This document shows positions 27,846 through 48,752 of a DNA stretch of 64,000 nucleotides, piece by piece. This DNA comes from Candidatus Moraniibacteriota bacterium. Lineage in GTDB: Bacteria; Patescibacteriota; Minisyncoccia; Moranbacterales; UBA1568. A model generated the notes under the pieces. The model saw nothing but the letters and a program-made list of their open reading frames with translations. It did not search any database and had not been told where the DNA came from. Location: positions 590,098-654,097 of the forward strand of contig CP064975.1 of NCBI GenBank assembly GCA_016699425.1, in the 5' to 3' direction. The translations under genes were made by a program, and so were the position numbers. Position 1 is the stretch's first letter; the number at the start of each line of letters is the position of its first letter.

Positions 27846-27907
27846 GCAGAGGAAAAAAGAAAAAGCGCCCAGGATCCATTCGGACCCCAGGCACTCAAGA
27901 CCTCGTT
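27846..27907. repeat. 62-bp conserved intergenic element, copy 1
   Basis: aagaaaaagcgcccaggatccattcggaccccaggcactcaagacctcgtttgttttgaaa; near-identical copy at 39508-39569. Confidence 0.8.
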
Positions 27908-27940
27908 TGTTTTGAAATCAAGTCCAGACTCCCTCAATAG

Positions 27941-29131
27941 ACCGTGATGGGACTACTCACCGTGCAATTGTTGGCTTCATTTGACTCTGTGACCGCACTT
28001 TGATAATCAGCGCAGCCCTTGAAGTAGTACGTGCCACGGGCACCAGATCTTCATGCCGCCATCGTACTGCTCGCGTTCTTCACAACCGACGCAGAGTTTG
28101 GAAGCCTCGGTCCCATCATCGGTAATGTACGTCCAGGTACCGCCCGTGCCCGGACCCATGAACCAGTACGAGCTCCGGATTGCTGCTGGTGAGGGAGCGG
28201 TGCCGACGTTTTTCACGTACATCGCTGGATAGAACTTGCTCCCCGCCTTGATCGACGCTGACCCACCCGCTGGACCAACCGCTCTCACGATGAAGTCGGG
28301 TTGGGGTGGTGGTTTGGGCGCCAACGTCACCGTCAGGCTGGCTGAGTTGTTGGTCTCATCTGTTTCCGGTTGTGTTCCCTGGTAGTCGGTGAAAAAAGAG
28401 AGGGTGCAGGTTCCGACCACATTCGGCAATTGAACCGGGGTAAGAGTCTCTTCCCAAGCACTCGCACCAGCCGTGAGGCTGCTGGCCATGGTGCCATCGT
28501 CAGTGAGCAGTATGTTCGATCCCCCATTGCAGGAAACCGTGTAGGCACTGCGGATGTCAGCTGTGGCATTGACCGTGCCTTGATTGGTGATGGTGGCGCC
28601 GAGACGGACGAAGTCGCCAGCGTAGGTAGGGGCTTGGAGGAGGGTGAAGCCGCTCGGGGTGAGGTCGACATCGGGGACGTTGACTGTCCCTTCGACGACT
28701 TCAATCACTGCTTCGGTACTGCAGTTGTTGGACTCGTGCTTTTCGTCGTGCTCGCCGCCGTTGTTGTGATCGTCCTGGGGATGATCGATACAGGCGACAA
28801 TATTGTAAATGCCGGGTTCCGTGATCCACTCCCGGATGACCGTATTCTTGGTCTCGGTATGCGTATCGCCTGGCTTCAAGCTGTCGCACTGGGTCGTCGT
28901 GCTATCGATCCTGCGCCGCGCACCGTCACCACTAGAAGAATCCTTCTTGTAGCCCTTGGAGAGGTAGAAGTGGCCGGTAATGGTCTGCGTGGTATCGTCT
29001 GGATTGCAGGGGCCGTCACCGATATTCTTGGTTTGGGCTTTGGTATCGAAGGATTCATCCAGGCCGAACGTGTTGACTCTGGTACCCCAGGGGGTTTCGA
29101 GCCAGGTCTTGGTGGTAACGAAGTCGGGTGG
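27941..29131 (-). pseudogene. C-terminal half of an IS-disrupted secreted M23-peptidase/CARDB gene (two CARDB-like domains)
   Basis: With the IS removed, the reading frame is continuous from the M23 ORF into this segment (…APPAPEPPD|FVTTKTWLETPWG…LKPGDTHTE…). An extra +1 frame break near 28030-28045 separates the final CARDB motif (…GTYYFKGCADYQSAVTESNEANNCTVSSPITVY*). Confidence 0.7.
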
Positions 29132-29231
29132 GATACCGTTACCTTTTCAGTTGATGGAAAGTGTTGTTCTTGTTAGACTAGAGCCTCAAACCGGCTGTAA
29201 AGTTGACTTTAAGCCTTAAATTTCATTCAGC

Positions 29232-29975
29232 ATGTCAAAAAAATGGTCACGTCACTGTCCCCGCTGCAGCAGTCGTGAGACGGTGAAGAATGGCTCCCAA
29301 GGCTACAGCCATCACTACCTGTGTCGTGCTTGTGAACATTCTTTTTCTCGTTACTTCGGGCATGATCCGAGACTGCTGTGGATCGAGCATATTGATGGGG
29401 TACCGTTTCGTAAATTAGGAGATGAATATGGTCTCTCGGGAAAACAAGCCTTCGTGAGAGTTACAAGAGAATTAGCACAACTTCCTTCCAATGACGCTCT
29501 GACGCAAACCCTCTGTGACCCGAGACGCTTCTCGGGCATCCTTGTCATGGATGGGAAGTATGTGGCGGTCAAAGGCTTTGCGAGAAAGATTCCTTTTCTC
29601 TACGGCATTGATTACTTGACCCACGATATTCCCTTCGGGGCTTTGTATACAGCGGAAGATGAGGTGTCCTTCTCACGTTTCTTCCATCAAGTGAAGCAAC
29701 TTGGCTATGATCTTCAGATCGTGGTCGCCGATGACCGCTCTGGCCTGAAAAAGGCTCTCCTGAAGGTTTTTCCGTCGGCTCGGCTGCAGCTCTGCCACAA
29801 CCACTACCTGGAGAATATCCGGGTGGCTTTACGGGTGCGGAGTGAAGAGCGATACCGGCCCTTCTTTTACGCTCTCAAGGAGAGCGTGTTTGGAGAACGA
29901 GAGGATGTGACGAACGCCATTCGATCTTTGCCGCGAGCATCAAGAGAGAGAAACGTCTGCTCAAAAACATCGTAA
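29232..29975 (+). CDS. IS transposase ORF A (InsA-like zinc finger plus most of the DDE domain)
   Basis: CPRCSSRETVKNGSQGYSHHYLCRACEHSF is an IS1 InsA-type zinc ribbon. Candidate catalytic D residues in LVMDGKY and IVVADDRSG. Ends …CSKTS* immediately after a CAAAAAC run. Confidence 0.75.
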   Translation: MSKKWSRHCPRCSSRETVKNGSQGYSHHYLCRACEHSFSRYFGHDPRLLWIEHIDGVPFRKLGDEYGLSGKQAFVRVTRELAQLPSNDALTQTLCDPRRFSGILVMDGKYVAVKGFARKIPFLYGIDYLTHDIPFGALYTAEDEVSFSRFFHQVKQLGYDLQIVVADDRSGLKKALLKVFPSARLQLCHNHYLENIRVALRVRSEERYRPFFYALKESVFGEREDVTNAIRSLPRASRERNVCSKTS

Positions 29976-30319
29976 GTGAGATAGCGTACCGGCAGGAGGA
30001 ACTCTTCAATTACTTGCTGCTGCCAGGCTGTCCCAACAACACCAATCTCATTGAACTCTACAATTCCCATCTCAATGGGAGGCTGAAGACGATCAAGGGT
30101 TTTCAGAGTTTTGCTTCGGCTCAGTGTTGGTTGAATGCGTGGATGATACGGAGGAGAACCAAGCCTTTTACAGATTGTGAAGCTAAATTTAAATATTTGA
30201 ACGGTTACCCTTCACTCTCTTTGAGTATCAAAAAACAGGCTCGCTGGCCTGAGACATTAGTAAAACTAGGCGTAGAAGCAGTAAAACTTTTTGAAAAAAA
30301 GCGCCCTACTATCAACTGA
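29846..30319 (+). CDS. IS transposase ORF B (-1 frame; carries the N…E…N motif with the catalytic Glu)
   Basis: …EIAYRQEELFNYLLLPGCPNNTNLIELYNSHLNGRLKTIKGFQSFASAQCW is the DDE-transposase E-region. Open from 29846 and overlaps ORF A by ~130 nt. Confidence 0.7.
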   Translation, partial: RAIPALLLRSQGERVWRTRGCDERHSIFAASIKREKRLLKNIVSEIAYRQEELFNYLLLPGCPNNTNLIELYNSHLNGRLKTIKGFQSFASAQCWLNAWMIRRRTKPFTDCEAKFKYLNGYPSLSLSIKKQARWPETLVKLGVEAVKLFEKKRPTIN

Positions 30320-30343
30320 AAAGGTAACGGTAACGTCGGGTGG

Positions 30344-31375
30344 CTCGGGAGCGGGCGGGGCGATAGCTTGGATGGGATAGCCCTGACCGGTACCGTACAC
30401 TGCTTTGGAAGCATTGCCCGCGACCACGTTGCCTGTGTAGACATTGATGGTGTTGATGGTCCCGAAAGCACGAATATCAGCTGCGCTGACTGTTTCCCCG
30501 AAGAAGTTACGAATGGCACGCCAGAACCTCTGCCACAGTGGATCTTCTGGTACTTGCTCTTGCGGATCCTGACTGTCCGCAATCGAAAAGAGTTGATTCT
30601 GGGCTTCGACACAGGCGTCCATACCAGCCGGTTGAGCAAACATATTGGTGCCCAGACGGTAACGAGTATCTGCGCCTTCACAAGAACTGGTGGTCGGTGT
30701 CCAACAGACTGTGCCCTGACAGCGCGCTTGGACTTCGGTAGATTGGTTGTAGGCAGAGTGGGTTTGAATGAAGCGGATGGGATCCTCGAATGAATTCGTA
30801 CAGGTGTTATCCCCTTCGCACGGAGTCCTCCATTCGGTATTTGCCATCATCCCCCAACCCTTTACACCCTTAACGGTAGCGGGAGGCGTACTTCCGAAGA
30901 AGATACCGAAATGCAAGTGGATGCCGCAACACCAGTCTCCGGTTTTCCCTATGGGTCTTCCAGCATAAACATCGTTTCCTGCCGGCAGACTTTCTTTCGA
31001 GAGATGCCCGTACAACGCAGTAAATACCTTCCCATCATACATTTTGTGTCGGATGAACAAGGCACAATTTCCGGGGCCCCATGCAGCATCATCACAATGA
31101 CGCTTGTAGATCGTACCATCTGCAATGGCATAGACATTGGCGTCCAGCCTGCGCGTCATCATATCCACGCCATTATGGTAGAAGCCATCGAAATAGTGCG
31201 GGGCTTCCGATGCGCTTTCATGTGCGTCATCCCTTCCTAACCATGTACCTCCCCCGCTCTCAAACGTTGCTTTTCCAATTGGATAGAAGAATCCCGTCTC
31301 CGTCTGGTCAATAGCATATACCGCATGCGCAAACAGACACAGCACTACCAGGATGAACATCGTTACTGCTTTCAT
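30344..31375 (-). pseudogene. N-terminal half of the IS-disrupted gene: secreted M23 (LytM-type) metallopeptidase domain
   Basis: Signal peptide MKAVTMFILVVLCLFAHAVYA and M23 motifs (…GRPIGKTGDWCCGIHLHFGIF…). The 369-aa track ORF (30266-31375) ends with 26 IS-encoded residues. Confidence 0.8.
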
Positions 31376-31485: not shown

Positions 31486-32136
31486 CTATCTAACAAGCCT
31501 GATCGAGGAGAGAAATTGCTTTTTTATATTCTCATCCAATTGTTTTTGTACCCACGGGAAACTTATTCGGTAATATCCGCCATTGTATTCGAACATTATC
31601 GCTTCATAACCCATTTCGCCAGGCATTGAGAGGATGTATGCCTTTGTTCCATCTATTGTTGTCTCACCAGTTACATTAATGTATGTGTGTTCGCTATCTG
31701 CAAGAAAATCCTCAAAATTCTCATACTTTTTCTCTTCTTCCCAACTACCCCCTTTCAATTCCGGATTATTTATGTCTTCCCATCGATTAATTGAAATAAC
31801 CAGGAAATAGCCTGGGATCTTCTGACCAGTTAAATCCTTTGCGTCTCCATCAAACTCCATGAACATAACCACACAACCGATATCTGTTGACTCGCTATCT
31901 ACCTTGAATGCTGTCGGATATTTAACGCTGAGCTTTAGTGTATCATTTCGATAGGTTTTCCAGTCGGAAGTATCGATCGGGTTCGCTGGTTCAGTCTGTG
32001 TCACTGGCTCGACGACGGGCTCAGTGGTCACAGGTGGATGAATGACTGCCTGCCGCTTTTGCATCATCCAAAAGGCGCCAGCAATGACGAGCAGGGCGAT
32101 AAGGGCGGTAGCGAGGAAGAGGGGTTTATGATTCAT
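31486..32136 (-). CDS. membrane-anchored hypothetical protein, paralog family A
   Basis: MNHKPLFLATALIALLVIAGAFWMMQ N-terminal anchor; paralog of 41008-41688 (MHQKPLFLTIILITLLAVIAGAFWCLQ). Immediately upstream of the M23 gene. Confidence 0.6.
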   Translation of the reverse strand: MNHKPLFLATALIALLVIAGAFWMMQKRQAVIHPPVTTEPVVEPVTQTEPANPIDTSDWKTYRNDTLKLSVKYPTAFKVDSESTDIGCVVMFMEFDGDAKDLTGQKIPGYFLVISINRWEDINNPELKGGSWEEEKKYENFEDFLADSEHTYINVTGETTIDGTKAYILSMPGEMGYEAIMFEYNGGYYRISFPWVQKQLDENIKKQFLSSIRLVR

Positions 32137-37167: not shown

Positions 37168-38472
37168 CTAATCTAACCAACCCCAATTTTTCAGCTGATT
37201 TCGGCTACTCAATTCAAAAGAAACACCGATATCATCACGGTAAAACGCCTTTGGAATAATGAGGTTTTTAACCCGTGTATATGCTTCGTCCCGCGCCAGT
37301 TCTATTGTCTTCCCGGAGCCACAGACATGAGCGACACAACCACGATTCCCAGCTATGTACAACTCCCCCATATCTTTGCAAGCCGCCTCTTCGAATCCGT
37401 AATGCTGCAACCCATCTAATGAAACCTTCTCTCTGAAAAGAATTGGTAGACCATTCGATGTTTCTGCAGTATGAACGTTCACATAGTAAGGATAGGGCGG
37501 GACAGCTACCGTCACGACGATGCCATACCCAGTCTTGTATTTCAGATCATATGTCTCTCCATCTGCAATCGCTGATAGAAACTCGATCCACGGAGACTCG
37601 TGTAACTCGATTTGAAGAGCTGTCGATGGGTTACCAAAACGAGCAGTGAACTCTAGTGGCCATGCTCCGTCTTGATTGACAATACAATTAATATCCACAT
37701 CTCCGCGGAAATCAATGTCTCTGAGATAATCAGCAACTTTCGCAAGTGTAGAAGAAAACAAGTGATTCTTCTCATTTCCGTCATACCACATCAAAGTACC
37801 CATCTCCGCCGTTTTTGGCCCAATCTCACCAGACATTAAGGCCTTGTGCTCAACATTCATTTCGATCGGACCAACCCAATCCTTACCGTTGAAATAACGT
37901 GCGACGCCAACCTCCACTCCGTCTACGCGCTGTTGCAGGTTTACTGCGGTTACGCCTTGATCCCGATAGTGCTCCAGCATGCCAATAAGGTCAGACTGAT
38001 CCTGGCTCTCGCCGACGAAGCAGAGCGAACTAATGTGCCCCCCATTCACCTTTGCCACCCAGCGATTCTCCGTATGTGTCTCAAGAAATCTCACCGCGTC
38101 CAAGAGATTCGAGAAGGTATAAGCCGGAAGTACATTCATTCCCGCCATTTCAAAGATCTGCTTCCCTACCAATCTATCAGTTTCGATGCGATCACCCTCC
38201 CGACTACCGCCAACTACTCGATACCCTTCCTTACGTAGGCTTGACTGTTCTACTCCGAAACCAATATCATCAAAAATGATAAGACCTTGCTTTCCAACCC
38301 ACGTCAATTCGCCCTTCCAGTCAGTAGTCTTCTGAACAAACCCGTCTAGACCAGAGGCAACTTCCGGATCTTGGATATACATCTTTACCTCACACTGCTC
38401 ACTGATAAGTTTAAATACAAGCTCAGACGCACCGAGTTCTCGGGATATAAAAAGTACTCGCATATTTTTCAT
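37168..38472 (-). CDS. ATP-grasp enzyme, PurD (phosphoribosylamine-glycine ligase)-like
   Basis: Collinear with GARS: MRVLFISRE… (N-domain), GPKTAEMGTL (cf. GPNTGGMGAY), EFTARFGNPST (cf. EFNCRFGDPE). Confidence 0.55.
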   Translation of the reverse strand: MKNMRVLFISRELGASELVFKLISEQCEVKMYIQDPEVASGLDGFVQKTTDWKGELTWVGKQGLIIFDDIGFGVEQSSLRKEGYRVVGGSREGDRIETDRLVGKQIFEMAGMNVLPAYTFSNLLDAVRFLETHTENRWVAKVNGGHISSLCFVGESQDQSDLIGMLEHYRDQGVTAVNLQQRVDGVEVGVARYFNGKDWVGPIEMNVEHKALMSGEIGPKTAEMGTLMWYDGNEKNHLFSSTLAKVADYLRDIDFRGDVDINCIVNQDGAWPLEFTARFGNPSTALQIELHESPWIEFLSAIADGETYDLKYKTGYGIVVTVAVPPYPYYVNVHTAETSNGLPILFREKVSLDGLQHYGFEEAACKDMGELYIAGNRGCVAHVCGSGKTIELARDEAYTRVKNLIIPKAFYRDDIGVSFELSSRNQLKNWGWLD

Positions 38473-38948
38473 TAATCTCCATCGTTCTTCCCCTCACCCT
38501 CAACCATATCCGAAACCGAGTCCGATTCCAATTCTGATACTAAGCCTGATTCACTCTCCTCGTCGACAGAAATCTGGCTACACTGCTCATTCTCCGGAAC
38601 ATTATTTTCACCACAGAACTCCTCTCTACAAGTGGCTACTTCTGAGCAAAGAATCTCCGGGCACGCACCTTCATTCGGACTACACAAAGGAACCTCTGCT
38701 GCCGAGACTGTTCTTATCTTATAGTAGTCAACTTCGCCCTCTTCACAATCTTCCTCACAAACGCGAACAAAACACGCCTCAATATCTGGATCACACACAA
38801 CTTCGCTCACTAGTAAATAATTCCTATCAATGTAAACCCTCTTCACGACAAGTCCGAAGGAAACCATAAAAAAAAGGAGAAAAGCAAGAATAATAGAAAA
38901 CTGTATCTTGCCCCCCCTTACATCCTGGCTCTGCATAGATTCAATCAA
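38472..38948 (-). CDS. Cys-rich acidic membrane-anchored hypothetical protein
   Basis: One TM helix, then 14 Cys in CxxxC/CxEE spacing and an acidic tail; ATGA overlap with the ATP-grasp gene. Confidence 0.45.
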   Translation of the reverse strand: MIESMQSQDVRGGKIQFSIILAFLLFFMVSFGLVVKRVYIDRNYLLVSEVVCDPDIEACFVRVCEEDCEEGEVDYYKIRTVSAAEVPLCSPNEGACPEILCSEVATCREEFCGENNVPENEQCSQISVDEESESGLVSELESDSVSDMVEGEGKNDGD

Positions 38949-39507
38949 ACTTTACTCTGCTTATATTCTACCAGATTATTCCTAAACCACTATAGAAAGT
39001 GCCGAATGTTTAGAATATTCTCACTATGGACACAACTAAAATAGAATCTGCTTGTTGTTAGTACTGCTCGTTGATATTTACCCCGAACGATACGAGAAGT
39101 GGGGATCTATCCTGAAATATCAATAGAAAGAAACACTCAAAGAAGAAAAAGGATTCGTCTCGGAGATGGAGTAATGTCACAACACCTGAAAGCCCCCACT
39201 GACTTATACCTGGGGTTAGATTCCCTTCGGACTTGGCTTACCTGTGCACGACCTAGTCACCGCTGTCCAGCCGAGATCGGCTGCACCAGCGGCAGTGAGG
39301 CTGGCAGCCCGGTCAAAAACGCCGCCAGAACGAAATACCCACCAAATAATAGAAAGACAATGGAAGAAAACACTACTGCCCGGTGAGACCCTTCAGTACG
39401 CATAAATTTTTTGTTTCGTGAGTTCAGTATAGTCCTCTCCATCCAAAAGGCGCAAGCAATCTCGCGACACTTAAGTGTGCTTGAGACTTTCCAGGTGTTT
39501 ATCTATT

Positions 39508-39569
39508 GCAAAAGAAAAAGCGCCCAGGATCCAGTCGGACCCCAGGCACTCAAGACCTCGTTTGTTTTG
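39508..39569. repeat. 62-bp conserved intergenic element, copy 2
   Basis: aagaaaaagcgcccaggatccagtcggaccccaggcactcaagacctcgtttgttttgaaa; 61/62 identical to copy 1. Confidence 0.8.
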
Positions 39570-39588
39570 AAAAAGCTCCACCGTGCCC

Positions 39589-40890
39589 TCAGTTCGTGAC
39601 CGTAATGGTCAGGCCTAAGGGTACTCCAGGGACGTTGTTGACGACTGAAAACGTCTGGATCTCCGTCCAGCTATCACCTTCATTGCTCTCAAAGGCTTCG
39701 TCCTCGGCATCGATCTTGGCTTTGAACGAAATGGTCGAGACCCCGAGTGGGACCGTGTAGTCGATGTGCTCGGTATGCGTAGCACCACTGGGGAGGTTGG
39801 TGGCCTGGATGTATTCGCGCTTGAGGAAGAACCAATCACCGAGGTCCAGACGAGCGTAGAGATCGACTTCGATTCGGTTCTTGCCGGGACGCATGTGGTC
39901 ATGGGTGTCGCCGTCCTTGGCTTTGACTTGGATCCGGGGTTGAATAACCTGACCAACTCGGACAGTTGATGTGGCCGGGTCAAGATCGGTACCCGATGCC
40001 ACGTCCCGCACCCAGAAACGGTTGACTTTCAGGTTAAAGGGGTCAGTACCGGCACCACCAAACACGCCATAGTGCTTGGTATCACTCGTTGCAACCCGAC
40101 CAGAGATCCGAGAACAGAGTCCCATAGTTGGATTGGAGAGACAGTAGGTCCTGTCCTGAGTGATATGGATGAAGTAATGTGGAAACTTAACGTCATTCGG
40201 ATCAGCGCTCTTGCACACCTTTCTCGCCCCAGTCCGACGGCCAAAGTTAAGTTCGTTGTCCCAGTTGTACTCAGAGACCTGCACGCACTTCACCCCGTTG
40301 TCTGCTCCGTCTGGTTCACCGTCTTCCTCTACTAGGGCAACATGGCCGTACTTATTGGCAGCGCGAATGATATTACCTTTCACATCTTTTTTCGCATCCC
40401 AGGCTTCCCAGACTGCGATATCTCCCTCGAATGCCCCGTTGAGACGGCTCTTTTCGAATGTGAACCTGTCTCGAGCGCCAGTGATTCCGATTTCGGATAC
40501 TCGAGCAGCATCGAACCAGTGATACCCACTCCCCCATGTCTGGCCGTAGTAGCTGTTCTTGAACTCGGGAGTTGTATTCCCCCAAGCCTCGTTCAGTTTA
40601 CTGGCCACATAAGAGGTACAGTTGCACTGGGCAAAACTCCATTTGTCGATGAAGTAACTCAGGTTATCCCACCGATATCTTGAGGTGCTGGCTATGTACT
40701 TGAAAGAATCAGCACTAGAGAGCACTCCTCCAGCCACCTGCTTTGTCTCATTTTCTCGTGTGACTTCGTCACCTTCATCTTTTGGACACTTGTCACGATA
40801 GAGGTATGTATCGTTTGTGTCTTCAGCAAAAGATGGAGATGGGGCAAACTGAAACATCAATGTACATAAGAAACACAGGAAAACTCGCAT
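39589..40890 (-). CDS. secreted CHAP-domain peptidoglycan hydrolase with C-terminal CARDB-like domain
   Basis: Start at MRVFLCF with RBS gaaggaggtgatagaATG (signal peptide). CHAP catalytic Cys (CNCTSYVASKL) and His (GHVALVEE). C-terminal …AEDEAFESNEGDSWTEIQTFSVVNN… resembles the CARDB motif. Confidence 0.75.
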   Translation of the reverse strand: MRVFLCFLCTLMFQFAPSPSFAEDTNDTYLYRDKCPKDEGDEVTRENETKQVAGGVLSSADSFKYIASTSRYRWDNLSYFIDKWSFAQCNCTSYVASKLNEAWGNTTPEFKNSYYGQTWGSGYHWFDAARVSEIGITGARDRFTFEKSRLNGAFEGDIAVWEAWDAKKDVKGNIIRAANKYGHVALVEEDGEPDGADNGVKCVQVSEYNWDNELNFGRRTGARKVCKSADPNDVKFPHYFIHITQDRTYCLSNPTMGLCSRISGRVATSDTKHYGVFGGAGTDPFNLKVNRFWVRDVASGTDLDPATSTVRVGQVIQPRIQVKAKDGDTHDHMRPGKNRIEVDLYARLDLGDWFFLKREYIQATNLPSGATHTEHIDYTVPLGVSTISFKAKIDAEDEAFESNEGDSWTEIQTFSVVNNVPGVPLGLTITVTN

Positions 40891-41007
40891 TCTATCACCT
40901 CCTTCGGTTGGAAAAGGACCACTCGCCAATGATACTGACGAGTCCTGAAACGATTATAGGTAAGTCGTTTCAAGACTAGCCACCATAAAGTATGGATCTT
41001 TGAATAG

Positions 41008-41688
41008 CTACCGAATCTCTTCCACTGAGGCGAAGACTTTCTTTAGGACTACAGATTGCGTTTCAATAAAATTCCCAATCCTGTTCTTTTCTTCACTCGA
41101 AATCTCTGATCGCAACCATTTACTATCATCGCTGTGGAAGCACATTGGAACTGTGGGGACATCTTCACCCGTTGGGATACCAAACGCAATAAAGAAGTCA
41201 GTGAACTGCAAACGTCCAATGAAGAAATCGGAAGGGGTCGACCATTCTTTCATGTCGCCTGCTTCTTTAGTAAAGTATCCGATAGCCCGCGTCCCTGGCT
41301 CACAAGCGGGCTCGAGCCCTAAGAGTGAATGAGAAGAAAAATGCACAGTTTCATGAAATGGCGTAGAGAATTTTTTTTCACCTTCAGTAATTTTCCCGTC
41401 TGACTTCGAATAAATGTATATCAAATCCTCTGCAAACTCTCTGTTTAACTTCATCCGGATACCCATCTCCGGGATGTTGTACCAGACCTCATCGGCATTC
41501 CCAGGGATAGTCTCGATGTGCTGGGGATACTTCTCTGTTTCAGCTTGGATGGGAGCCTGAGCGACTGGTTCAGACACGATTGGTTGATTCATCGCTCCCG
41601 GGCGGTTTTGGAGACACCAAAAGGCGCCAGCAATGACGGCGAGGAGAGTGATAAGGATGATCGTGAGGAAGAGGGGTTTCTGATGCAT
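41008..41688 (-). CDS. membrane-anchored hypothetical protein, paralog family A
   Basis: Paralog of 31486-32136; immediately upstream of the CHAP hydrolase gene. Confidence 0.6.
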   Translation of the reverse strand: MHQKPLFLTIILITLLAVIAGAFWCLQNRPGAMNQPIVSEPVAQAPIQAETEKYPQHIETIPGNADEVWYNIPEMGIRMKLNREFAEDLIYIYSKSDGKITEGEKKFSTPFHETVHFSSHSLLGLEPACEPGTRAIGYFTKEAGDMKEWSTPSDFFIGRLQFTDFFIAFGIPTGEDVPTVPMCFHSDDSKWLRSEISSEEKNRIGNFIETQSVVLKKVFASVEEIR

Positions 41689-41740
41689 AGAAATTAAAGG
41701 TGGAGATTAGCAAAAAAAAAATACAAGTTGTCAAATTCTT

Positions 41741-44302
41741 CTACCCGCCCAGGTCCGCCTCGGTGAAGGTGATTTCGGCCCCTTCGGCGAGCGTGCCTTC
41801 GAGGAGACGCTTCACGATCGTGTCTTCCACGACATCGGCGATATAGCGGTTGATCGAGCGCGCACCGAACTCGCGTTCGTAGCCATGTGCGACGACCGCG
41901 CGGATCGCGTCGGGTGTGAATGCGAGTTTCACTTTCTTTTCCTTATAGAGCTTGTCGGCAAAGGCCTGCAGCCGAAGAGTGGTCACCTGTTCCATCTCCT
42001 CCGTCGTGAGTGAATTAAAGAGGATGACTCCATCGAAACGGTTCAGGAATTCCGGCCGGAACGTACCTTTGGCGATGATCGCATCCATGAGTTCGTCTTT
42101 GATCTCGACCATCGAGCGGCCCGCCCCGGTTGCTTCGTGAATCATGTCCGCGCCGGCATTTGAGGTCGCGATGACGATCGTGTTCCGGAAGTTCACCTTG
42201 TGACCAAAGCCATCCGTAACATAGCCTTCATCGAGGATCTGGAGGAAGAGATCAAGTGCCCGTGGGTATGCCTTCTCCAGTTCATCGAGGAGGAGGATGG
42301 AATACGGTCGTTCTTTGATGAGGGACGTCATCCGGCCTTGGACATTCATCTCGGCTGAGCCAATGAGCTCATCGATTGATTGCGGTGTCTGAAATTCGCT
42401 CATGTCGAGTCGGACCATCCGGTTCTCGTCCCCGAAATACACCGCTGCTAGGGCTTTGGCGGTTTCCGTCTTGCCGACACCGGTCGGACCGAGGAAGAGG
42501 AAGGAGCCAATCGGTTTCTTGTCGTTCCCGAGTCCCGCGCGCGCCTTGCGGAAGGCCTCGGACATTTGTTTGATGGCTTCCTCTTGCCCGATGACTCGCT
42601 CATGGAGGAGTGCTTCCAAATTGAGCAGTTTCTGCCGCTCCTCTTCATTCGCTTCGCCCATCGGGATACCAGATTTCGCTTCGAGGAAATCCTCGACGGT
42701 TGTCCGTTCGATAAAAGCGAGATCGGGATGCTTCTCCCAATAGATAAGCACTTCCTGAGCGAGATCGATGGCCCGCTCCGGAAATGGCATCTCCCAATTG
42801 TAACGCTCGGAACCATCAACGATCGCCTGAAGCGCCTGGATGGTGAAGACCGGACGATTTTTCTCAAGCGTCTTGAAGGTATCGACGAGAATGGTGATCG
42901 TCTCTTCTTGCGTCGGTTCGGGTACTTGAATGGCCTCGAAGTACTTGAGCGCGGGGATCTGACGCTGACCCAAGGTGTGATAGGCCTCAGCCGTCATCAG
43001 CCCGATGATGCGGCAGGTCGGCAGCGAGAGGTAATCGTTCAGGACATCACTGACCGCCATATCGCTCTCGGGATCGAGGAAGAGGTTGATGTTTTCGATG
43101 ACCAGAACGACATTACCAGCATAGACCGCGCCGTTCAAGAGATCACGCAAGAGTCCTTTGGGGTCAATCCCCTGCGACCGACCGTCCGAGATGACCTGTC
43201 CCATGTCAAAGATGACCACGCGTGCCTCATCGATGATTTTGTCGGTGAAGGAATTTTCCCGGATGCGACGAGCGAAGGCATGGACGAGCGAACGTTTGCC
43301 GATACCAGGGTCACCCACGAGGAGCGCACTATTGTCCGTCGGTCGCGACAAGGTGAGCGTGAGCATCTCCATCACTGGTTCGCGCCCAACAAGCTCTTGA
43401 TGCGCATAGTTACTGAAATCATGCTCGGACAGATCGCTGATGTAGTGATCAAGGCGCGGTGTATAGGCATAGGCCCAGTACTTGCCGATGCGGGTCGCCT
43501 GGCGAAGTTCGGTCCATTCCCAGAATCGGCTCTGACGTTCTTTCGCGGCATAGGCGGCACCCTCGATCGCCCAGGCCAGGTCGAATAGTTCCGGCGTGAG
43601 GTGATGAGCCGAGAGAAAAGCTGTGCGCTGCTCTGGCACGGCGATCACCTCTGCCCGCGCCTCTTTGGCGGCGAGTCCCAATCGCATCATCGCCCGACCG
43701 CGCCACGGTGCGTGCTCGGGCTGTACCGTATAGTCGATCCGGCCGCGTTCATACTCATGCCACGCGAGCACCGCAACGATTGTCACGACAATCGCGACGA
43801 CGAAAGCAGCGATACCGGCGAACGTCCCAAAGAGCCCGCCGATGATGACACTGCCCCCGATGAGGATGAGCGGGGCGAGAGCCGCGAAGAGGGACAGGGC
43901 GATGACGGCGACCGCCATGAGCACGATGGCACCGAAACCCCAGGCCAAGACGACCGAACGGACAATCGCACCGAGAAAACGGGTGATCAGGTTATTCGCG
44001 AGGGCCTGGACAAAGAGAATCGGGTGCAGCCCCTGCCAAGTATGAAAGCTGATGTCACGCTTCCACGGCGAGATGAGCGTCCGGAAGAGACCGACGACAT
44101 TGAAGCGGTGCAAAACATAACGGACATAATTGCCCGCAATCCTCGCAATCGAGAGGATCCCGACGGAATAGTACCAAAGGAAGAAATTCATCTCAGAACG
44201 TTTTTGTCTGTTTTCTCTATTGTACCGTTTCGATACCCTTTCGTAAATTGAAGCCAGGCCTGTTTTTGCGTATACTAGAGCCATACTATGATATTCCCTC
44301 AT
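41741..44302 (-). CDS. Clp/Hsp100-family AAA+ ATPase (two AAA modules) with N-terminal transmembrane region
   Basis: Walker A1 GDPGIGKRS, Walker A2 GPTGVGKTE, sensor-2 region (…REFGARSINRYI…). Residues ~100-180 are strongly hydrophobic (GAIVLMAVAVIALSLFAALAPLILIGGSVIIGGLFG…). Confidence 0.75.
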   Translation of the reverse strand: MREYHSMALVYAKTGLASIYERVSKRYNRENRQKRSEMNFFLWYYSVGILSIARIAGNYVRYVLHRFNVVGLFRTLISPWKRDISFHTWQGLHPILFVQALANNLITRFLGAIVRSVVLAWGFGAIVLMAVAVIALSLFAALAPLILIGGSVIIGGLFGTFAGIAAFVVAIVVTIVAVLAWHEYERGRIDYTVQPEHAPWRGRAMMRLGLAAKEARAEVIAVPEQRTAFLSAHHLTPELFDLAWAIEGAAYAAKERQSRFWEWTELRQATRIGKYWAYAYTPRLDHYISDLSEHDFSNYAHQELVGREPVMEMLTLTLSRPTDNSALLVGDPGIGKRSLVHAFARRIRENSFTDKIIDEARVVIFDMGQVISDGRSQGIDPKGLLRDLLNGAVYAGNVVLVIENINLFLDPESDMAVSDVLNDYLSLPTCRIIGLMTAEAYHTLGQRQIPALKYFEAIQVPEPTQEETITILVDTFKTLEKNRPVFTIQALQAIVDGSERYNWEMPFPERAIDLAQEVLIYWEKHPDLAFIERTTVEDFLEAKSGIPMGEANEEERQKLLNLEALLHERVIGQEEAIKQMSEAFRKARAGLGNDKKPIGSFLFLGPTGVGKTETAKALAAVYFGDENRMVRLDMSEFQTPQSIDELIGSAEMNVQGRMTSLIKERPYSILLLDELEKAYPRALDLFLQILDEGYVTDGFGHKVNFRNTIVIATSNAGADMIHEATGAGRSMVEIKDELMDAIIAKGTFRPEFLNRFDGVILFNSLTTEEMEQVTTLRLQAFADKLYKEKKVKLAFTPDAIRAVVAHGYEREFGARSINRYIADVVEDTIVKRLLEGTLAEGAEITFTEADLGG

Positions 44303-46027
44303 CTCCTCTCTCGTTCGCCGTGGCTGATCGCCCTCTCTGGCTTCGTGCTCGCTCTCACGCTCGCTCTCACGCTCGCGCTATTCGGCTGGTTCCATCCGAC
44401 GCTGATTTTTGTTGCGGGCGGGTTTCTTTTCGGCGGCCTCGGTCTCGCCCTATTCGCTCTGTATCGGGAGCGTGACTGGTTGCGACTCTGCCTCATCAGC
44501 GGACTGACACTCTTGGCCATCCTCATCGCCCTCCGCGCCGAACCAACTATCTTCACCGGCCGCGACCAAGGATCAATCGCTCTTGCCGCGCTCGAACTCG
44601 CCGAGCGGCATGAACTCGCGTTCCAAACACCTGTTTCCGACGCCTTCTTCGCCATCTATGGTCCCGGCCGCGCGCTCAATTTCCCCGGTTTCTCTTACAG
44701 CGATTCTGGTGCGCTCCTCACTCAATTTCCCCTCGGCTATATCTCATACCTGGCGCTCTTCGCAAGCTGGTTCGGCCTCATTGGCCTCCTCCTGGCCAAT
44801 GCGCTCCTGTTCACTCTTTCCGGCTGGACTTTTTTTGAACTCGCTTCGCTCTTCGTCACCCGACGGAATGCGGTCCTCGGTACCACGCTCTTTGCGACAT
44901 CATTCCTCACGATCTGGCTCGCCCAGATGACACTGACCGAAAATCTCGCCCTCCTCCTCTTTCTCACCCTCGCCGTCGCACTCGTCCGCTTTGAACGCGA
45001 AGACGACCGCCACTTTCTCCCCCTGATTATCGTCACCGGATTTTTCCTCGCCCTGACACGTATCGAGGGCTTCGTCATCGCACCGCTCGCACTCGCTTTC
45101 ATACTCTGGCGGCCGATACTCCGCGCTCATCTCTTCACACTCCCTCGGAGGTGGTTCATCCCTGCCGTTCTCTTCCTCGGTTTTCTTCTCCTCCGTGATC
45201 TCTTCATGAATCTCCCCTTCTACACCATGATTGGCAAAGCGGCCGTCCGGTACTGGCACGAACTCGGGGCGATCGGCGGTGACAGTACCGAGCCACGACT
45301 TGGACCAATCCTTTCCTCCTACGGTCTCTTCCCCGTCTTCATCCTCGGTATCGCTTCGCTCGCGTTAGGCCTCATGCGACGCCGATTCACCCTCTTCATC
45401 CCCGTCCTGCTCGCGCTGCCAACTTTTGTCTATCTCCTGAACGGCCATATCTCGGATGACCACCCGTGGCTCTTGCGCCGTTACGCCTTCACACTGTTCC
45501 CCGTTTTCCTCCTCGCGACTGTCGTTCTCTCGCAAGTAGTAATAGACAAAGTGAATGCGGGCCGGAAATCTTTGGTTACCCTCGGCGTGTTCGGCCTCCT
45601 CTTCCTTCTCCAGGCGTGGCCAGCATATCAGGCCCTCTCGGTGATCGAGTATCAGACGCTCCACGCTCAAGCGACCGATTTCGGTAAGCAATTCACGCCG
45701 CACGACCTCATCCTCATCGACCGAGCAGCCACCGGTGATCCGTTCGCGTTGATCGCTGGTCCACTCATGAGTCTCGACGGGAAAAACGCCGCCTATTTCT
45801 TTAATCCCGATGACTACGTCCGTCTCGATCGGAGCGCTTTCGACCGTATTTATCTGCTCACGACCGAGGACACCGTCGGCCACTTCGCCGAGGCTTTCGG
45901 AGACCATCTTCTCCCCGTCGAAGTCCGCTCATTCTCCTTCCCCTCGCTCGCCGCGCCGAAACCCTTTGCCTGGCCGATCGAGAAAACTGTTGGGAGTGAC
46001 GCGATACTCTTTGAGATAACCCCCTGA
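44288..46027 (+). CDS. polytopic membrane protein (possible GT-C/ArnT-like glycosyltransferase)
   Basis: 579 aa, more than 12 TM helices, C-terminal soluble domain. Contains a 12-bp tandem repeat (gctctcacgctc x2.5 at 44349-44385) coding ALTLALTLAL. Confidence 0.4.
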   Translation: MIFPHLLSRSPWLIALSGFVLALTLALTLALFGWFHPTLIFVAGGFLFGGLGLALFALYRERDWLRLCLISGLTLLAILIALRAEPTIFTGRDQGSIALAALELAERHELAFQTPVSDAFFAIYGPGRALNFPGFSYSDSGALLTQFPLGYISYLALFASWFGLIGLLLANALLFTLSGWTFFELASLFVTRRNAVLGTTLFATSFLTIWLAQMTLTENLALLLFLTLAVALVRFEREDDRHFLPLIIVTGFFLALTRIEGFVIAPLALAFILWRPILRAHLFTLPRRWFIPAVLFLGFLLLRDLFMNLPFYTMIGKAAVRYWHELGAIGGDSTEPRLGPILSSYGLFPVFILGIASLALGLMRRRFTLFIPVLLALPTFVYLLNGHISDDHPWLLRRYAFTLFPVFLLATVVLSQVVIDKVNAGRKSLVTLGVFGLLFLLQAWPAYQALSVIEYQTLHAQATDFGKQFTPHDLILIDRAATGDPFALIAGPLMSLDGKNAAYFFNPDDYVRLDRSAFDRIYLLTTEDTVGHFAEAFGDHLLPVEVRSFSFPSLAAPKPFAWPIEKTVGSDAILFEITP

Positions 46028-46030
46028 TCT

Positions 46031-47215
46031 TTGTCTATGGAGCCACCCCTTACGCCCATTCCCACACGTCTCCAACCGCTCTATACGAAGCTCCGTATCA
46101 CACTCGCGATTGGTCTCGCACTGGCTGGTCTCGCGCTTGTCTATACTTTTCTGTTCCCGACGGTGACGACTGGCTTTGACTTCCGCAATCCGAAATCGAG
46201 CCGGAATCAGATCTTCGAGCCGCGCGCTGAATCGGGCACACCGCGAACGAATGGCAAACTCGAAGCGCTCGGCCGCCTCGTCGCCAACACGAGCCCGCTC
46301 GGAAATTTTTCGCACCTCACGGTCAGTATCGATCTCGAGAAGCAATCCGAAACCCCGAGCCAAATCGCAGTCAGCATTCGGAAGGGGTATCGCGCCTTCC
46401 TCTATCCGACTGGGGCTGAGATCACCGACTTTCCACAATCAACCGTCTACCGCATCCGCGATACATACTATGAGTCACGAAGTGGTGTACTGTATCCCTT
46501 TGTCAGTGAAGCGGCGTATCTCTCACGTTACCCGGCCAGTCATACCACACTTGAAGCGGACGATTTTGGCTGCATCGGAATAGCAAACTGCGATGGTAGA
46601 GTAGATGTTTCCGATCAATTCATTGGGTTCCGCGTCGGCACGCTCCTCTCGTTCGCCGATGGTGTCTACGTGGTCACGAGCGAATCCGAGATCCGCCCTA
46701 TCGGCAGCGCCGAGATCTTCCTGGCGCTCGGCTACCGTTTCGAGGACGTCTTGCCAGCCAATGAAGAAGATCTGGGGATATACAAACGCGGTCGCATTCT
46801 CCTTATGGGCGCCCCGCACCCAGACGGCACCCTCTTCGTGGACCAAGACACCAGCACACTCTTTCTCATTGAGGGCGAGATGCGCCATCCAGTCAAACCG
46901 GGCGCGTACCATGATTTCCTCTTCGCCAACTCGCATCCGATAACCGCGAGCGAGTCCGGAAGTCGTCGGAGTGCTCAATGCACAGCCACATCCGGATTGC
47001 TCCCGCGTGCGCTCGATTGTGTCACTGAGCTTGGAACTCTTGACGGCGTCATCGGGTCAGACTATGAAGTGACGCTCTCGGACAATGACGTAGCGATCGA
47101 CATCGCGAACCTGACCCTCGCCTTCGAGACTCGCCTCAGTTCCGACAACCTGACGACGCTCCTCGCCAAAGTGAAACAGCGCATCCTCGCCCGCTTTGGT
47201 CTCGCCACACCGTAA
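46031..47215 (+). CDS. membrane-anchored hypothetical protein
   Basis: 394 aa, N-terminal TM helix; no recognisable family. Confidence 0.45.
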   Translation: MSMEPPLTPIPTRLQPLYTKLRITLAIGLALAGLALVYTFLFPTVTTGFDFRNPKSSRNQIFEPRAESGTPRTNGKLEALGRLVANTSPLGNFSHLTVSIDLEKQSETPSQIAVSIRKGYRAFLYPTGAEITDFPQSTVYRIRDTYYESRSGVLYPFVSEAAYLSRYPASHTTLEADDFGCIGIANCDGRVDVSDQFIGFRVGTLLSFADGVYVVTSESEIRPIGSAEIFLALGYRFEDVLPANEEDLGIYKRGRILLMGAPHPDGTLFVDQDTSTLFLIEGEMRHPVKPGAYHDFLFANSHPITASESGSRRSAQCTATSGLLPRALDCVTELGTLDGVIGSDYEVTLSDNDVAIDIANLTLAFETRLSSDNLTTLLAKVKQRILARFGLATP

Positions 47216-47220
47216 TCCCT

Positions 47221-47640
47221 ATGGACACATTCTTCAAGAGATCACTCGACAAATACGCGTCTGACGGACGACTCGCCATCGCCGCCAACCTCCTCTCGGA
47301 TATCGTCTGCGTCGGTTGGATCGCTTTTGCCGGTCTGTACGCCGTCGAAGTATTGCTCCCCACATTCGTCACCGCCCGACTCTCACTCGTGAAATTCGCT
47401 ATTCTGTTACTCGCGCTGACAAGTATCCTCGTCTGGCTCATTCAAAGTCTGGCACCGACGAAGCAACCATCAAATAGAATACTCTCGCGCCCCTTACGGA
47501 TTCTCCTCATTATAATTGCGATTGGTATCATTTCGCTTGCACACTATCGCTTCCCCTGGTGGAGCATCCCGATTATCGTCAGCGGCTACAGCCTCGTGCT
47601 GTGGCTCTTCTTCCGGCTCACCCGAGGTGGTGAACACTAA
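47221..47640 (+). CDS. hypothetical membrane protein
   Basis: 139 aa, 4 TM helices. Confidence 0.45.
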   Translation: MDTFFKRSLDKYASDGRLAIAANLLSDIVCVGWIAFAGLYAVEVLLPTFVTARLSLVKFAILLLALTSILVWLIQSLAPTKQPSNRILSRPLRILLIIIAIGIISLAHYRFPWWSIPIIVSGYSLVLWLFFRLTRGGEH

Positions 47641-48752
47641 CTGAGGATCGTATCGAGCGTTTCTCGCGCCGTCTGATCCCAAGAAAAACGCCTGAGTTCA
47701 CCGTTCGCTTTTTCCCGCAGCGAATCCTGCAATGGTCTATCGTTCCAGAGCAGGACGAGCTTTGCGGCGATGTCCGAAGTGTTTTCCGCATCGACATAGA
47801 GCGCGCCGTCACCCGCCACTTCGCGCAGACTGGAATTGTCGGCGGTGAGGACGGGCACGCCTGAAGCAAACGCCTCGAGAATTGGGAGCCCGAACCCCTC
47901 GTAGAGCGATGGAAAAGCGAACAAACGAGCCCCTTGATAGAGTGCTCGCAGGTCTTCGAAACTCACGCGTCCCGTAAGGACGATATCCTCCCGATAGACA
48001 CTCTGCTCTCTCGCAGTGAGGATTCCTTCCGAGAGCCAGGCGGGTTCACCGGCGAGCACCAGCCGCATCTCCGGGCAGGTTCTTTTCGCATGCTCGAAAG
48101 CCTGGATGAGGCGAACGAGGTTCTTGCGGGGCTGCAGGGCTCCGACGTAGAGCGCGTAGCTCGTAGGTTGTAGGTTGTAGCTTTTTAGTTTTTCCGATAC
48201 TGCATCCGGAGCGAGCCTCGCGCCGAAGAACTCAGCATCGAAGCCATGATGGATAACCCGGATAGTGTCCGGATCAAGTTCGGGGAAAAATTCAAGGAGA
48301 TCGCGTTTCGTAGACTCAGAAACCGCGATGAGTCGATCAGCCTGCCGCACCGCCGTGTCGAGCATGAAGTTGAGTTTACGGAGATGGCTCGGTGGGAAGG
48401 TTTCGGGAAAACGCCGGAAAGCGAGGTCGTGAATGGTCGCTGTCACCGTCAAGCCACGAGGCAAGATCACTGGAGCCGCCTGAATCGGCAGAAACAGCCG
48501 ATCGGGTCGGGACCGGAACATCTCCCACGCGAATCGCGTCTGCATCCATGCGTACGGAAACGGGAGCGTTTTGACGTGGTAATTGAGGAGATCTGGTGGG
48601 GCAAGCAAAGGATTAAAGGTCCCCCGATGGTACAGCAGAAACTGCGTCTCAGGCGACAACGCACCAAAGCGTTTGAGGAGTTCGCGCACATATACCCGCG
48701 TCCCATCAATCCGGACATGGTCGAGATCACTCGCTTGAATAGCCAGTTTCAT
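47637..48752 (-). CDS. glycosyltransferase family 1 (GT4)
   Basis: EX7E motif (FPSLYEGFGLPILEAFASGVPVL). Confidence 0.8.
   Translation of the reverse strand: MKLAIQASDLDHVRIDGTRVYVRELLKRFGALSPETQFLLYHRGTFNPLLAPPDLLNYHVKTLPFPYAWMQTRFAWEMFRSRPDRLFLPIQAAPVILPRGLTVTATIHDLAFRRFPETFPPSHLRKLNFMLDTAVRQADRLIAVSESTKRDLLEFFPELDPDTIRVIHHGFDAEFFGARLAPDAVSEKLKSYNLQPTSYALYVGALQPRKNLVRLIQAFEHAKRTCPEMRLVLAGEPAWLSEGILTAREQSVYREDIVLTGRVSFEDLRALYQGARLFAFPSLYEGFGLPILEAFASGVPVLTADNSSLREVAGDGALYVDAENTSDIAAKLVLLWNDRPLQDSLREKANGELRRFSWDQTARETLDTILS

Follow-up and report, generated by a model that had tools for sequence, protein, structure and literature searches.

The bacteria of the candidate phyla radiation (CPR; Patescibacteria) are thought to live attached to other cells; to our knowledge, how they breach or remodel a wall, and how they avoid damage to their own, is largely unknown. 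This question is raised by a small locus of a Candidatus Moraniibacteriota bacterium (assembly GCA_016699425.1, contig CP064975.1), located at positions 39508-41688 of the stretch of 64,000 nucleotides that was analysed and that is called here the window (positions 590,098 to 654,097 of the contig, forward strand). All the genes in this region are on the minus strand; the first one codes for a small membrane protein, called here the partner, and the second for a secreted hydrolase. Judging from its sequence, the locus is probably an intact two-gene operon formed by a membrane-anchored partner, a secreted wall hydrolase and an ordinary terminator. It is referred to as module 2, and a related module that is interrupted by an insertion sequence (IS) as module 1; no further modules were found within the 64-kb window. 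Our proposal is that the wall hydrolase has a dedicated membrane-anchored inhibitor, or immunity partner, and that the pair is diversified by the exchange of a cassette. To this whole statement we assign a probability of about 0.42, and the structural parts alone, i.e., the partner gene, the hydrolase gene, the terminator and the cassette, are held with high confidence. The features of the locus are the following:

41704..41734, minus strand: promoter-like site read from the sequence (TTGACA at 41734-41729, a 19-nt spacer, and TGc-TAATCT at 41709-41704)
41008..41688, minus strand: partner gene, IPJ68_03185, an open reading frame (ORF) of 226 amino acids (aa)
41452..41688, minus strand: constant 5′ segment of the partner gene, which codes for residues 1-79 with the leader, the stalk and the invariant motif; 98% identical to the metagenome-assembled genomes (MAGs) L025 and L026 and to contig L017
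40046..41452, minus strand: strain-variable cassette of 1.4 kb (partner residues ~80-226, intergenic spacer, and hydrolase residues 1-~282 with the signal peptide and the CHAP domain)
40894..40904, minus strand: strong ribosome-binding site, AAGGAGGTGAT, 3 nt before the hydrolase ATG
39589..40890, minus strand: secreted hydrolase gene, IPJ68_03180, 433 aa; a look-up of this exact protein on contigs returned no record, and the NCBI annotation uses a shorter start
40618-40620 and 40342-40344, minus strand: codons of the predicted catalytic residues Cys91 and His183, which are accompanied by Glu207 and Asn209
39640..40041, minus strand: constant C-terminal beta-sandwich domain, CARDB-like (residues 284-417)
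39510..39572, minus strand: 63-nt element, copy 2 (lead-in UUUCAAAACAAACGAGGUCUUGA, 15-bp hairpin at 39518-39551, and U-run), which starts 16 nt past the stop codon

The two proteins and the strain-variable cassette

The hydrolase begins with a signal-peptide-like segment (residues 1-22, ending in ...SFA|ED, as read from the sequence), and its ATG is preceded at 3 nt by the ribosome-binding site; both features had been recognised by an earlier reading of this DNA without database searches (the sequence-only reading), and both hold. Residues 83-209 match the Pfam family CHAP (PF05257; peptidase C51) with 27.0 bits, a marginal pass over the cutoff of 26, and homologues score 28.6-36.9 bits. In an alignment of 24 homologues, every sequence has Cys91 (in NCTSYV), His183 (in GHVA) and Asn209 and most have Glu207, and the profile of the CHAP family matches the solved CHAP/C51 chains 9eum, 2lrj and 2k3a on the segment GHVA...SEYN, with E-values from 8e-4 to 0.08. 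The CHAP domain with its Cys and His, which had also been proposed from the letters of the sequence, is thereby corroborated, and the protein is predicted to be a Sec-secreted modular peptidoglycan hydrolase whose head would act as a CHAP cysteine peptidase or amidase.

The second domain that had been proposed for this protein, a CARDB-like C-terminus, was confirmed only in part. The full-length hydrolase gave no CARDB match in Pfam, and residues 281-433 alone reached 13.2 bits (E 0.11), where the cutoff of PF07705 is 22.7; domain searches thus support CHAP and not CARDB for this protein itself. On the other hand, the homologues P0022, P0025 and P0039 pass the CARDB cutoff (25.6-27.3 bits) over columns aligned to residues ~284-417, and AlphaFold2 models the tail as an all-beta sandwich with a predicted local distance difference test score (pLDDT) of about 90. 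The best PDB matches of the tail found with Foldseek are immunoglobulin-like (Ig-like) sandwiches, i.e., RhoGDI, PDE-delta, UNC119 and the carbohydrate-binding domain of Wzt, with E-values of about 1e-5 and target-normalised TM-scores of 0.45-0.56, and no CARDB structure was among them. The term CARDB-like would therefore be acceptable as a description only, through the homologues, with the window protein itself below the family cutoff. The tail is 47-66% identical to the tails of the metagenomic M23+CARDB proteins P0047, P0049 and P0053; the same tail is thus found on M23 heads elsewhere, from which it follows that heads are shuffled on a common tail. Within the window, BLASTP detected no similarity of the tail of the CHAP protein to either the CARDB ORF of module 1 or the restored M23 protein, and the two hydrolases have in common only the last few codons and the 3′ untranslated region, not their tails.

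The partner is formed by a transmembrane anchor (residues 6-27), a Pro/Gln-rich stalk (residues 28-52) and an outer domain of ~170 aa; its AlphaFold2 model (pLDDT 78) has a helix at residues 6-27. It is a single-pass membrane protein, most likely with its domain carried outward on the stalk, and this topology is proposed because of the conserved Cys pair, the stalk and the pairing with secreted enzymes. A lipoprotein or pilin-type leader was also considered and was rejected upon reading the sequence, where neither a lipobox nor the motif G-F-T-L-I-E is present. Twenty homologues of the partner were collected, and every named one comes from Moraniibacteriota. The family has an invariant motif, KYPQHIExIPGNxDEVWYNIPExGIRMKLN, with the remainder of the protein highly variable and two conserved Cys residues. 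A profile search of 1.84 billion representative proteins assigned 504 clusters to it at E≤1e-3. The family has no match in Pfam, NCBIfam, PADLOC or PHROG (the searches of PADLOC and PHROGs gave nothing for either protein of the module), and nothing significant was found for the outer domain in PDB or BFVD, by fold (Foldseek) or by sequence. Some members of the family are duplicated or fused to PsbP_2-like domains: in the metagenomic proteins P0207, P0224 and P0203 the partner ectodomain is in one chain with PsbP_2-like domains, and once with a FecR-domain protein.

Sequence comparison firmly supports a mosaic evolution of the locus, in which the inner halves of both genes have been exchanged together, as a cassette, among near-identical strains. 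Over 48000..41452, and again from 40046 on (L025 down to 32054), the MAGs L025 and L026 match the window with 98.1-98.7% identity. Between these limits, the cassette shows no blastn similarity to either of them, except for 57 nt at 79% identity around the catalytic Cys. Of the two proteins, the partner is identical as far as residue ~77 and fully divergent after it, and the hydrolase is about 45% identical up to the sequence DPFNLKVN (residue ~283) and nearly identical beyond; the break points coincide with domain boundaries. The second allele is present in L025, L026 and the Logan contig L017, and the window allele in the Logan protein P0001; each allele has therefore been recovered in independent assemblies, which excludes an assembly artefact as the source of the difference. 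In six comparisons with genomes that are more distant the left boundary (41408-41452) is found again, with DNA similarity stopping at 41408-41422. The CHAP head of the window is 92% identical to that of another species (L002/L006) and reaches only 39% against the heads of its own species-mates, and therefore heads move between lineages. A diversity-generating retroelement was considered as the source of the variation and was rejected, since the variable region has no repeat in 26-42 kb, and what separates the alleles are indels and stretches that cannot be aligned, rather than A-specific substitutions.

Regarding expression, transcription probably starts at TTGACA...TGcTAATCT, just upstream of the partner gene. 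This promoter-like site is 15 nt from the partner ATG, and the partner gene lacks a Shine-Dalgarno sequence; a consensus promoter scan did not list the site because of its 19-nt spacer. DNA alignment revealed the same block (TTGACA...TTTTTGCTA(A/C)T) 5′ of the small gene of module 1. The partner and hydrolase genes, bracketed by the promoter-like site and the terminator, would be expressed as a single transcript. The spacer between them contains a 10-bp hairpin (40921-40943, minus strand) just upstream of the ribosome-binding site, as well as a perfect TATAAT at ~40953-40958; these could represent an internal promoter or a regulatory structure.

Pairing across genomes and the possible roles of the partner

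The pairing of the two genes was followed in 13 loci of the KYPQHIE type from species-representative genomes, 12 of them with enough downstream DNA. In 10 of these 12 the partner gene is followed, on the same strand and at a distance of 110-450 bp, by a CHAP gene carrying the tail described above; the exceptions were two, a frameshifted gene beside secDF and a gene beside a transposase. The same order was found in L025, L026, L017 and L019. Likewise, partners of the PsbP_2 type, which the partner of module 1 resembles, are followed by an M23+CARDB gene in the four loci (4/4) with downstream DNA, and also in the IS-broken module 1 of the window. Since both pairings are matched by type, the family of the outer domain tracks the catalytic family of the enzyme.

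Other genes accompany these loci. A gene coding for 107-111 aa is found directly after the CHAP gene in five of them (L011 7954-, L012 2430-, L013 7818-, L014 3203- and L018 1366-1689), and its product is a secreted, Cys-containing and highly divergent protein; a counterpart was sought in the window and its spacer and is absent. Upstream, the module of the window is directly preceded by a ClpB/ClpA-like AAA+ gene (41741-44302, minus strand, 853 aa) that has a long N-terminal membrane region in place of the Clp_N domain; a ClpB-like gene occupies this position also in L003/L005, L025 and L026, with 85% aa identity to that of L003. Many of the records of the loci L004-L015 are named 'uncultured Bdellovibrionales bacterium' and are probably mislabelled.

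Linkage within a variable island could by itself produce the synteny and the joint replacement, without the two genes being functional partners. The intergenic distances of 110-450 bp in other genomes, together with the perfect TATAAT in the window spacer, suggest that separate transcription is possible, and the covariation of the two proteins described below is weak. However, the two genes remain adjacent and in the same orientation in many divergent genomes and in varied genomic surroundings, and the family-to-family match holds for two independent types; for these reasons we find it very improbable that the genes are mere neighbours.

We infer the promoter, the outward topology, the binding, the inhibition and the target as parts of the following mechanism. 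Transcription would run from the promoter upstream of the partner gene to the 63-nt element. The partner would bind the catalytic head of the hydrolase at the membrane surface of the producer, sparing the producer's own wall, and the released enzyme, aimed by its constant tail, would cut the walls of other cells, either the host or competitors. The variable halves of the two genes abut and would be swapped as one cassette through recombination in the constant flanks, i.e., the leader with the invariant motif on the left, and the tail domain with the terminator on the right. Two marks of toxin-immunity loci were found: adjacent, co-oriented and family-matched genes (10/12 for CHAP and 4/4 for M23), and joint replacement between close strains. 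An immunity partner is favoured because variation among strains, the presence of several paralogues and a dispensable copy are in keeping with a conflict system, dispensability being indicated by the one module copy that is disrupted by an IS.

The distances of the partner and of the head are correlated only weakly. In 12 pairs, the Mantel correlation between the partner variable region and the CHAP head was 0.29 (p 0.03); the corresponding values were -0.04 for the partner variable region and the tail, and -0.09 for heads and tails. The constant parts of the two proteins, i.e., partner residues 1-77 and the tail, gave r 0.64, although shared phylogeny can explain this value. This last correlation would agree with a surface tether or host-attack complex that has nothing to do with immunity, in which the constant motif of the partner would hold the constant tail of the enzyme on the surface of the episymbiont and the exposed variable parts would be under pressure from hosts or phages for which they serve as receptors. 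No other part of the module changes as fast as the variable region of the partner (mean p-distance 0.70), such extreme variability being typical of exposed surface proteins, and the tail resembles glycan- or ligand-binding Ig-like sandwiches. Nevertheless, partners of the PsbP_2 type lack the invariant motif and are still paired with M23+CARDB enzymes, and a tether leaves unexplained why the outer-domain family tracks the catalytic family, so that we regard it as improbable.

Several observations weigh against the partner being an immunity protein. The window protein passes the Pfam cutoff of CHAP only marginally and fails that of CARDB, and the outer domain of the partner resembles no known immunity protein or fold in searches of PDB and BFVD. 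The heads of the window and of L002/L006 are 92% identical, and their partner variable regions differ at 78% of positions, a clear counter-example, since such a mismatch is not what one would predict from a strict lock-and-key immunity pair. The overall covariation of partner and head is weak, and the joint replacement could be explained by the physical adjacency of both regions between two recombination anchors. The ~110-aa secreted protein of the five other loci could be the true inhibitor. Finally, in a related genome the orthologous locus is directly upstream of mreB-mreC-mreD-PBP2, which hints at a housekeeping role in wall growth.

Such a role corresponds to an autolysin with its regulator. 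According to this explanation, the enzymes are the cell's own hydrolases for making space in the wall or separating daughter cells, and the partner positions or activates them at the growing wall. Membrane partners of this kind are known for other wall hydrolases, as in FtsEX-PcsB, ActH-LytH and SpdC-SagB. The neighbourhood in GCA_964385515.1, where the locus is immediately upstream of mreB-mreC-mreD-PBP2-greA-aspS, agrees with it, as does the presence of the module beside the same ClpB-like membrane AAA+ gene in four genomes. Also in its favour are the near-identical CHAP head that tolerates very different partner variable regions, the weak covariation, the possible alternative inhibitor gene of other loci, and the invariant motif near the N-terminus of the partner, which points to docking as a conserved function. 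On the other hand, four facts are unexpected for a housekeeping enzyme: the wholesale replacement between 98%-identical strains, the four or more paralogous copies in a reduced genome, the tolerance of IS disruption, and the swap of the catalytic chemistry (CHAP versus M23) on the same tail. We regard an autolysin and its regulator as a serious alternative of lower probability, and maintain a cassette-diversified hydrolase with an immunity partner as our preferred reading.

The terminator, the broken module and the downstream spacer

A 62-bp repeat had been noticed at the end of both modules. This repeat is real and recurs twice, in contrast with 0 occurrences expected from 100 shuffles of the 64 kb; its exact length is 63 nt, and the first copy had been placed about 10 nt off. 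The two copies are identical at 62 of 63 positions, with the sole mismatch in the loop. In the RNA of the minus strand the element folds into 15 pairs (8 G-C and several G-U) with a 4-nt loop, followed by UUUUUCUUUU. The stem forms in minus-strand RNA only, owing to its G-U pairs, and on the plus strand the folding is not better than that of shuffled sequences. Both copies, with 15 pairs each, are the top two terminator-like sites in 18.5 kb, and relatives show hairpins of other sequence and T-runs at the same position after homologous genes. Compensatory changes were observed in 10 of 14 consensus pairs, in a small sample (5 sequences from 3 genomes) with an imperfect alignment register. Rfam gave no match to the element; it returned only two tRNAs elsewhere and one chance match to a long non-coding RNA. 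Taken as a whole, this anatomy identifies the element as a Rho-independent terminator, ordinary in kind, which is predicted to set the transcript ends in vivo.

The 63-nt element might have a role beyond termination, whether as a small mobile repeat, as an anchor for recombination or as the 3′ end of a stable regulatory RNA, with selection keeping the copies identical. The coding DNA just upstream of the two copies is only about 60% alike, against 98% for the copies themselves (62/63). In addition, the A-rich lead-in (TTTnnAAACAAA; TTTnnAAACAAAC), of 25 nt and located 7-9 nt ahead of the stem, is conserved in sequence across genomes whose hairpins differ, and the element is the right-hand edge of the constant flank. 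However, there are only two copies in 64 kb, each exactly 16 nt past the stop codon of a homologous gene, and the element has neither terminal repeats nor target duplications. Exact-pattern scans for the hairpin and the lead-in gave 0 matches in collections of genomes and metagenomes that evidently do not include the source genome, and thus the count of two holds for the 64-kb window only; Rfam likewise had none. Considering that the anatomy is that of a textbook intrinsic terminator, an additional function is scarcely probable.

The other copy of the element belongs to module 1, which is composed as follows:

31486..32136, minus strand: module-1 partner gene, IPJ68_03140, 216 aa, with the shared promoter, leader and linker and a PsbP_2-like outer domain
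27934..31375, minus strand: module-1 hydrolase pseudogene (M23 head at 30344-31375, CARDB part at 27934-29131, frameshift near 28040)
29132-30334: IS256/Mutator-type IS of 1,203 bp in the M23 gene, with 9-bp duplications at 29123-29131 and 30335-30343
27855..27917, minus strand: 63-nt element, copy 1, which starts 16 nt past the restored stop codon (27934-27936)

The existence of this second copy, with a small membrane protein, a secreted hydrolase and a common 3′ element, had been claimed from the sequence and is borne out; so is the view that module 2 is the intact and probably functional one, given the 1,203-bp IS and the 3′ frameshift of module 1. The small proteins of the two modules had been considered paralogues, and this applies to the promoter, the anchor and the linker and not to the outer domains, which are unrelated. 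BLASTP of the two proteins showed 25/50 identical residues (E 5e-13) in the first ~50 residues only, hhalign of their profiles aligned 51 columns that correspond to the anchor and the stalk, and the DNA is alike, with about 80% identity, only in the TTGACA...TGCTA(A/C)T block and on through about 100 coding nt. Past residue ~50 the two proteins belong to different families. The module-1 partner scores 26.3 bits for PsbP_2 (PF18933) against a cutoff of 27, and 8 of its homologues have a precomputed match to this family.

The IS has terminal inverted repeats of 22-24 nt (22 nt perfect), and its transposase matches PF00872 with 32.7 bits against a cutoff of 21; the 9-bp target duplication is GTCGGGTGG. 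It is probably inactive, because the transposase ORF is split in two (29232-29975 and 30014-30319). Removal of the IS and one copy of the duplication restores an ORF of 718 aa that is 55% identical to, and collinear with, intact M23+CARDB orthologues of 731-774 aa. The last ~25 codons of this hydrolase (GTYYFKGCADYQSAVTESNEANNCTVSSPITVY; tail ...ESNEANNCTVSSPITVY) are out of frame near 28040, and this out-of-frame end matches the C-terminus of a CHAP-CARDB protein of another genome; the frameshift may be either real or an error of long-read assembly.

The locus of module 1 is also variable among strains: the identity of L025 to the window stops inside the leader, at 32054, and two small genes that share this leader (251 and 214 aa; L025 16647-17860), located after aspS, replace the gene of the PsbP_2 type. 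A gene for a DKNYY-repeat protein (26063-27817, minus strand) begins 37 nt past copy 1 of the terminator, and another DKNYY gene (L001 11231-12673) is about 4 kb from a CHAP module.

Downstream of module 2, the spacer of the window had been described as AT-rich and as containing no convincing ORF. The AT-richness is moderate (GC 0.444 versus 0.521 for the window), with a stretch of 0.51-0.60 over an annotated and conserved ORF that contradicts the second part of the description:

39257..39402, minus strand: 48-aa ORF with a single transmembrane segment, IPJ68_03175, just downstream of the terminator

This ORF is found exactly in NCBI and in a second MAG, has close copies in a third MAG and 7 JGI contigs, and is kept by three other assemblies with mostly synonymous differences; those from L025 are synonymous, and the similarity of L026 to the window ends right past the stop codon of the ORF. 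A further gene (IPJ68_03170, 38472-38936, minus strand) codes for a membrane-anchored, Cys- and acid-rich protein of 154 aa with no family match, and its stop codon overlaps the start of a purD-like ATP-grasp gene.

Significance and comparison with known systems

In a search of the full-text literature, no paper dealt with CHAP, M23 or CARDB hydrolases in Moranbacteria or Patescibacteria, or with PF18933, and public annotations refer to the module proteins as hypothetical, 'CHAP domain-containing' or 'surface antigen'. In its broadest form, our proposal would be that CPR bacteria carry a Sec-dependent polymorphic system, undescribed before, of hydrolases and cognate partners, in which a new domain family controls CHAP enzymes and PsbP_2-like domains control M23 enzymes, the abutting halves are exchanged as a cassette between conserved flanks, formed by the promoter, leader and motif at one end and by the tail domain and terminator at the other, and the system acts as a self/non-self or host-range determinant of episymbionts; this generalisation is tentative and, as a whole, rather doubtful. 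The locus offers a compact and testable pair, i.e., one enzyme and one small partner, with natural alleles in 98%-identical strains and a second pair with M23 chemistry. If the partner is an inhibitor, it would represent a new family of regulators of peptidoglycan hydrolases, and should the cassette turn out to control antagonism between strains, or host range, it would give uncommon access to the ecology of the uncultured Moranbacteria. Even if the pair is only an autolysin and its regulator, it would still be the first candidate mechanism for the control of wall hydrolases in this group.

Polymorphic toxin-immunity loci include CdiA-CT/CdiI, Rhs-CT and the peptidoglycan amidases Tae/Tai of the type VI secretion system. 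Like the toxin domain of these loci, the variable domain of the enzyme is replaced together with its adjacent partner between strains, with a sharp break at a conserved motif. In contrast, the geometry of the locus is mirrored, given that the variable domain of the enzyme is N-terminal and the constant one C-terminal; moreover, the partner has one constant and one variable half, there is no dedicated secretion system, and the covariation is weak.

With regard to the enzyme, domain shuffling has been documented for modular wall hydrolases (PMC12356512, PMC9662197). Lysostaphin, zoocin A, phage endolysins and staphylococcal CHAP autolysins share with the window protein an N-terminal CHAP or M23 head and a C-terminal targeting domain, with heads shuffled on a common tail. 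They differ in that the tail of the window protein is a CARDB-like Ig sandwich and not an SH3b, LysM or cell-wall-binding domain, and in that the host of these genes is a CPR bacterium. Protection of the producer from lysostaphin and zoocin is achieved by cytoplasmic FemABX-like enzymes, and not by a membrane-anchored, outward-facing protein such as the one proposed here.

Membrane-anchored, outward-facing immunity proteins are known for toxins that target the wall, i.e., TipC for TelC (PMC6193138) and Cmi for colicin M (PMC5277000). In these cases, as in the window, the protein is encoded next to a secreted wall-acting enzyme and paralogous copies exist; by analogy, this parallel in architecture lends support to an immunity role of the partner. 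The differences are that the window partner matches neither of them in sequence or fold, that its gene is located upstream of the enzyme gene and not downstream, and that inhibition is in this case what we infer. The locus is made of parts of known kinds, i.e., a modular lysin, an anchored partner and a terminator; in comparison with conventional intrinsic terminators, with which it shares a G+C-rich hairpin and a U-run directly after the stop codon, strand specificity due to G-U pairs and compensatory changes in the stem, this one is distinguished by a conserved A-rich lead-in of 25 nt and by near-identical paralogous copies. What appears to be undescribed before is the domain family of the partner, its type-specific pairing with the enzymes, and the head-to-head geometry of the cassette.

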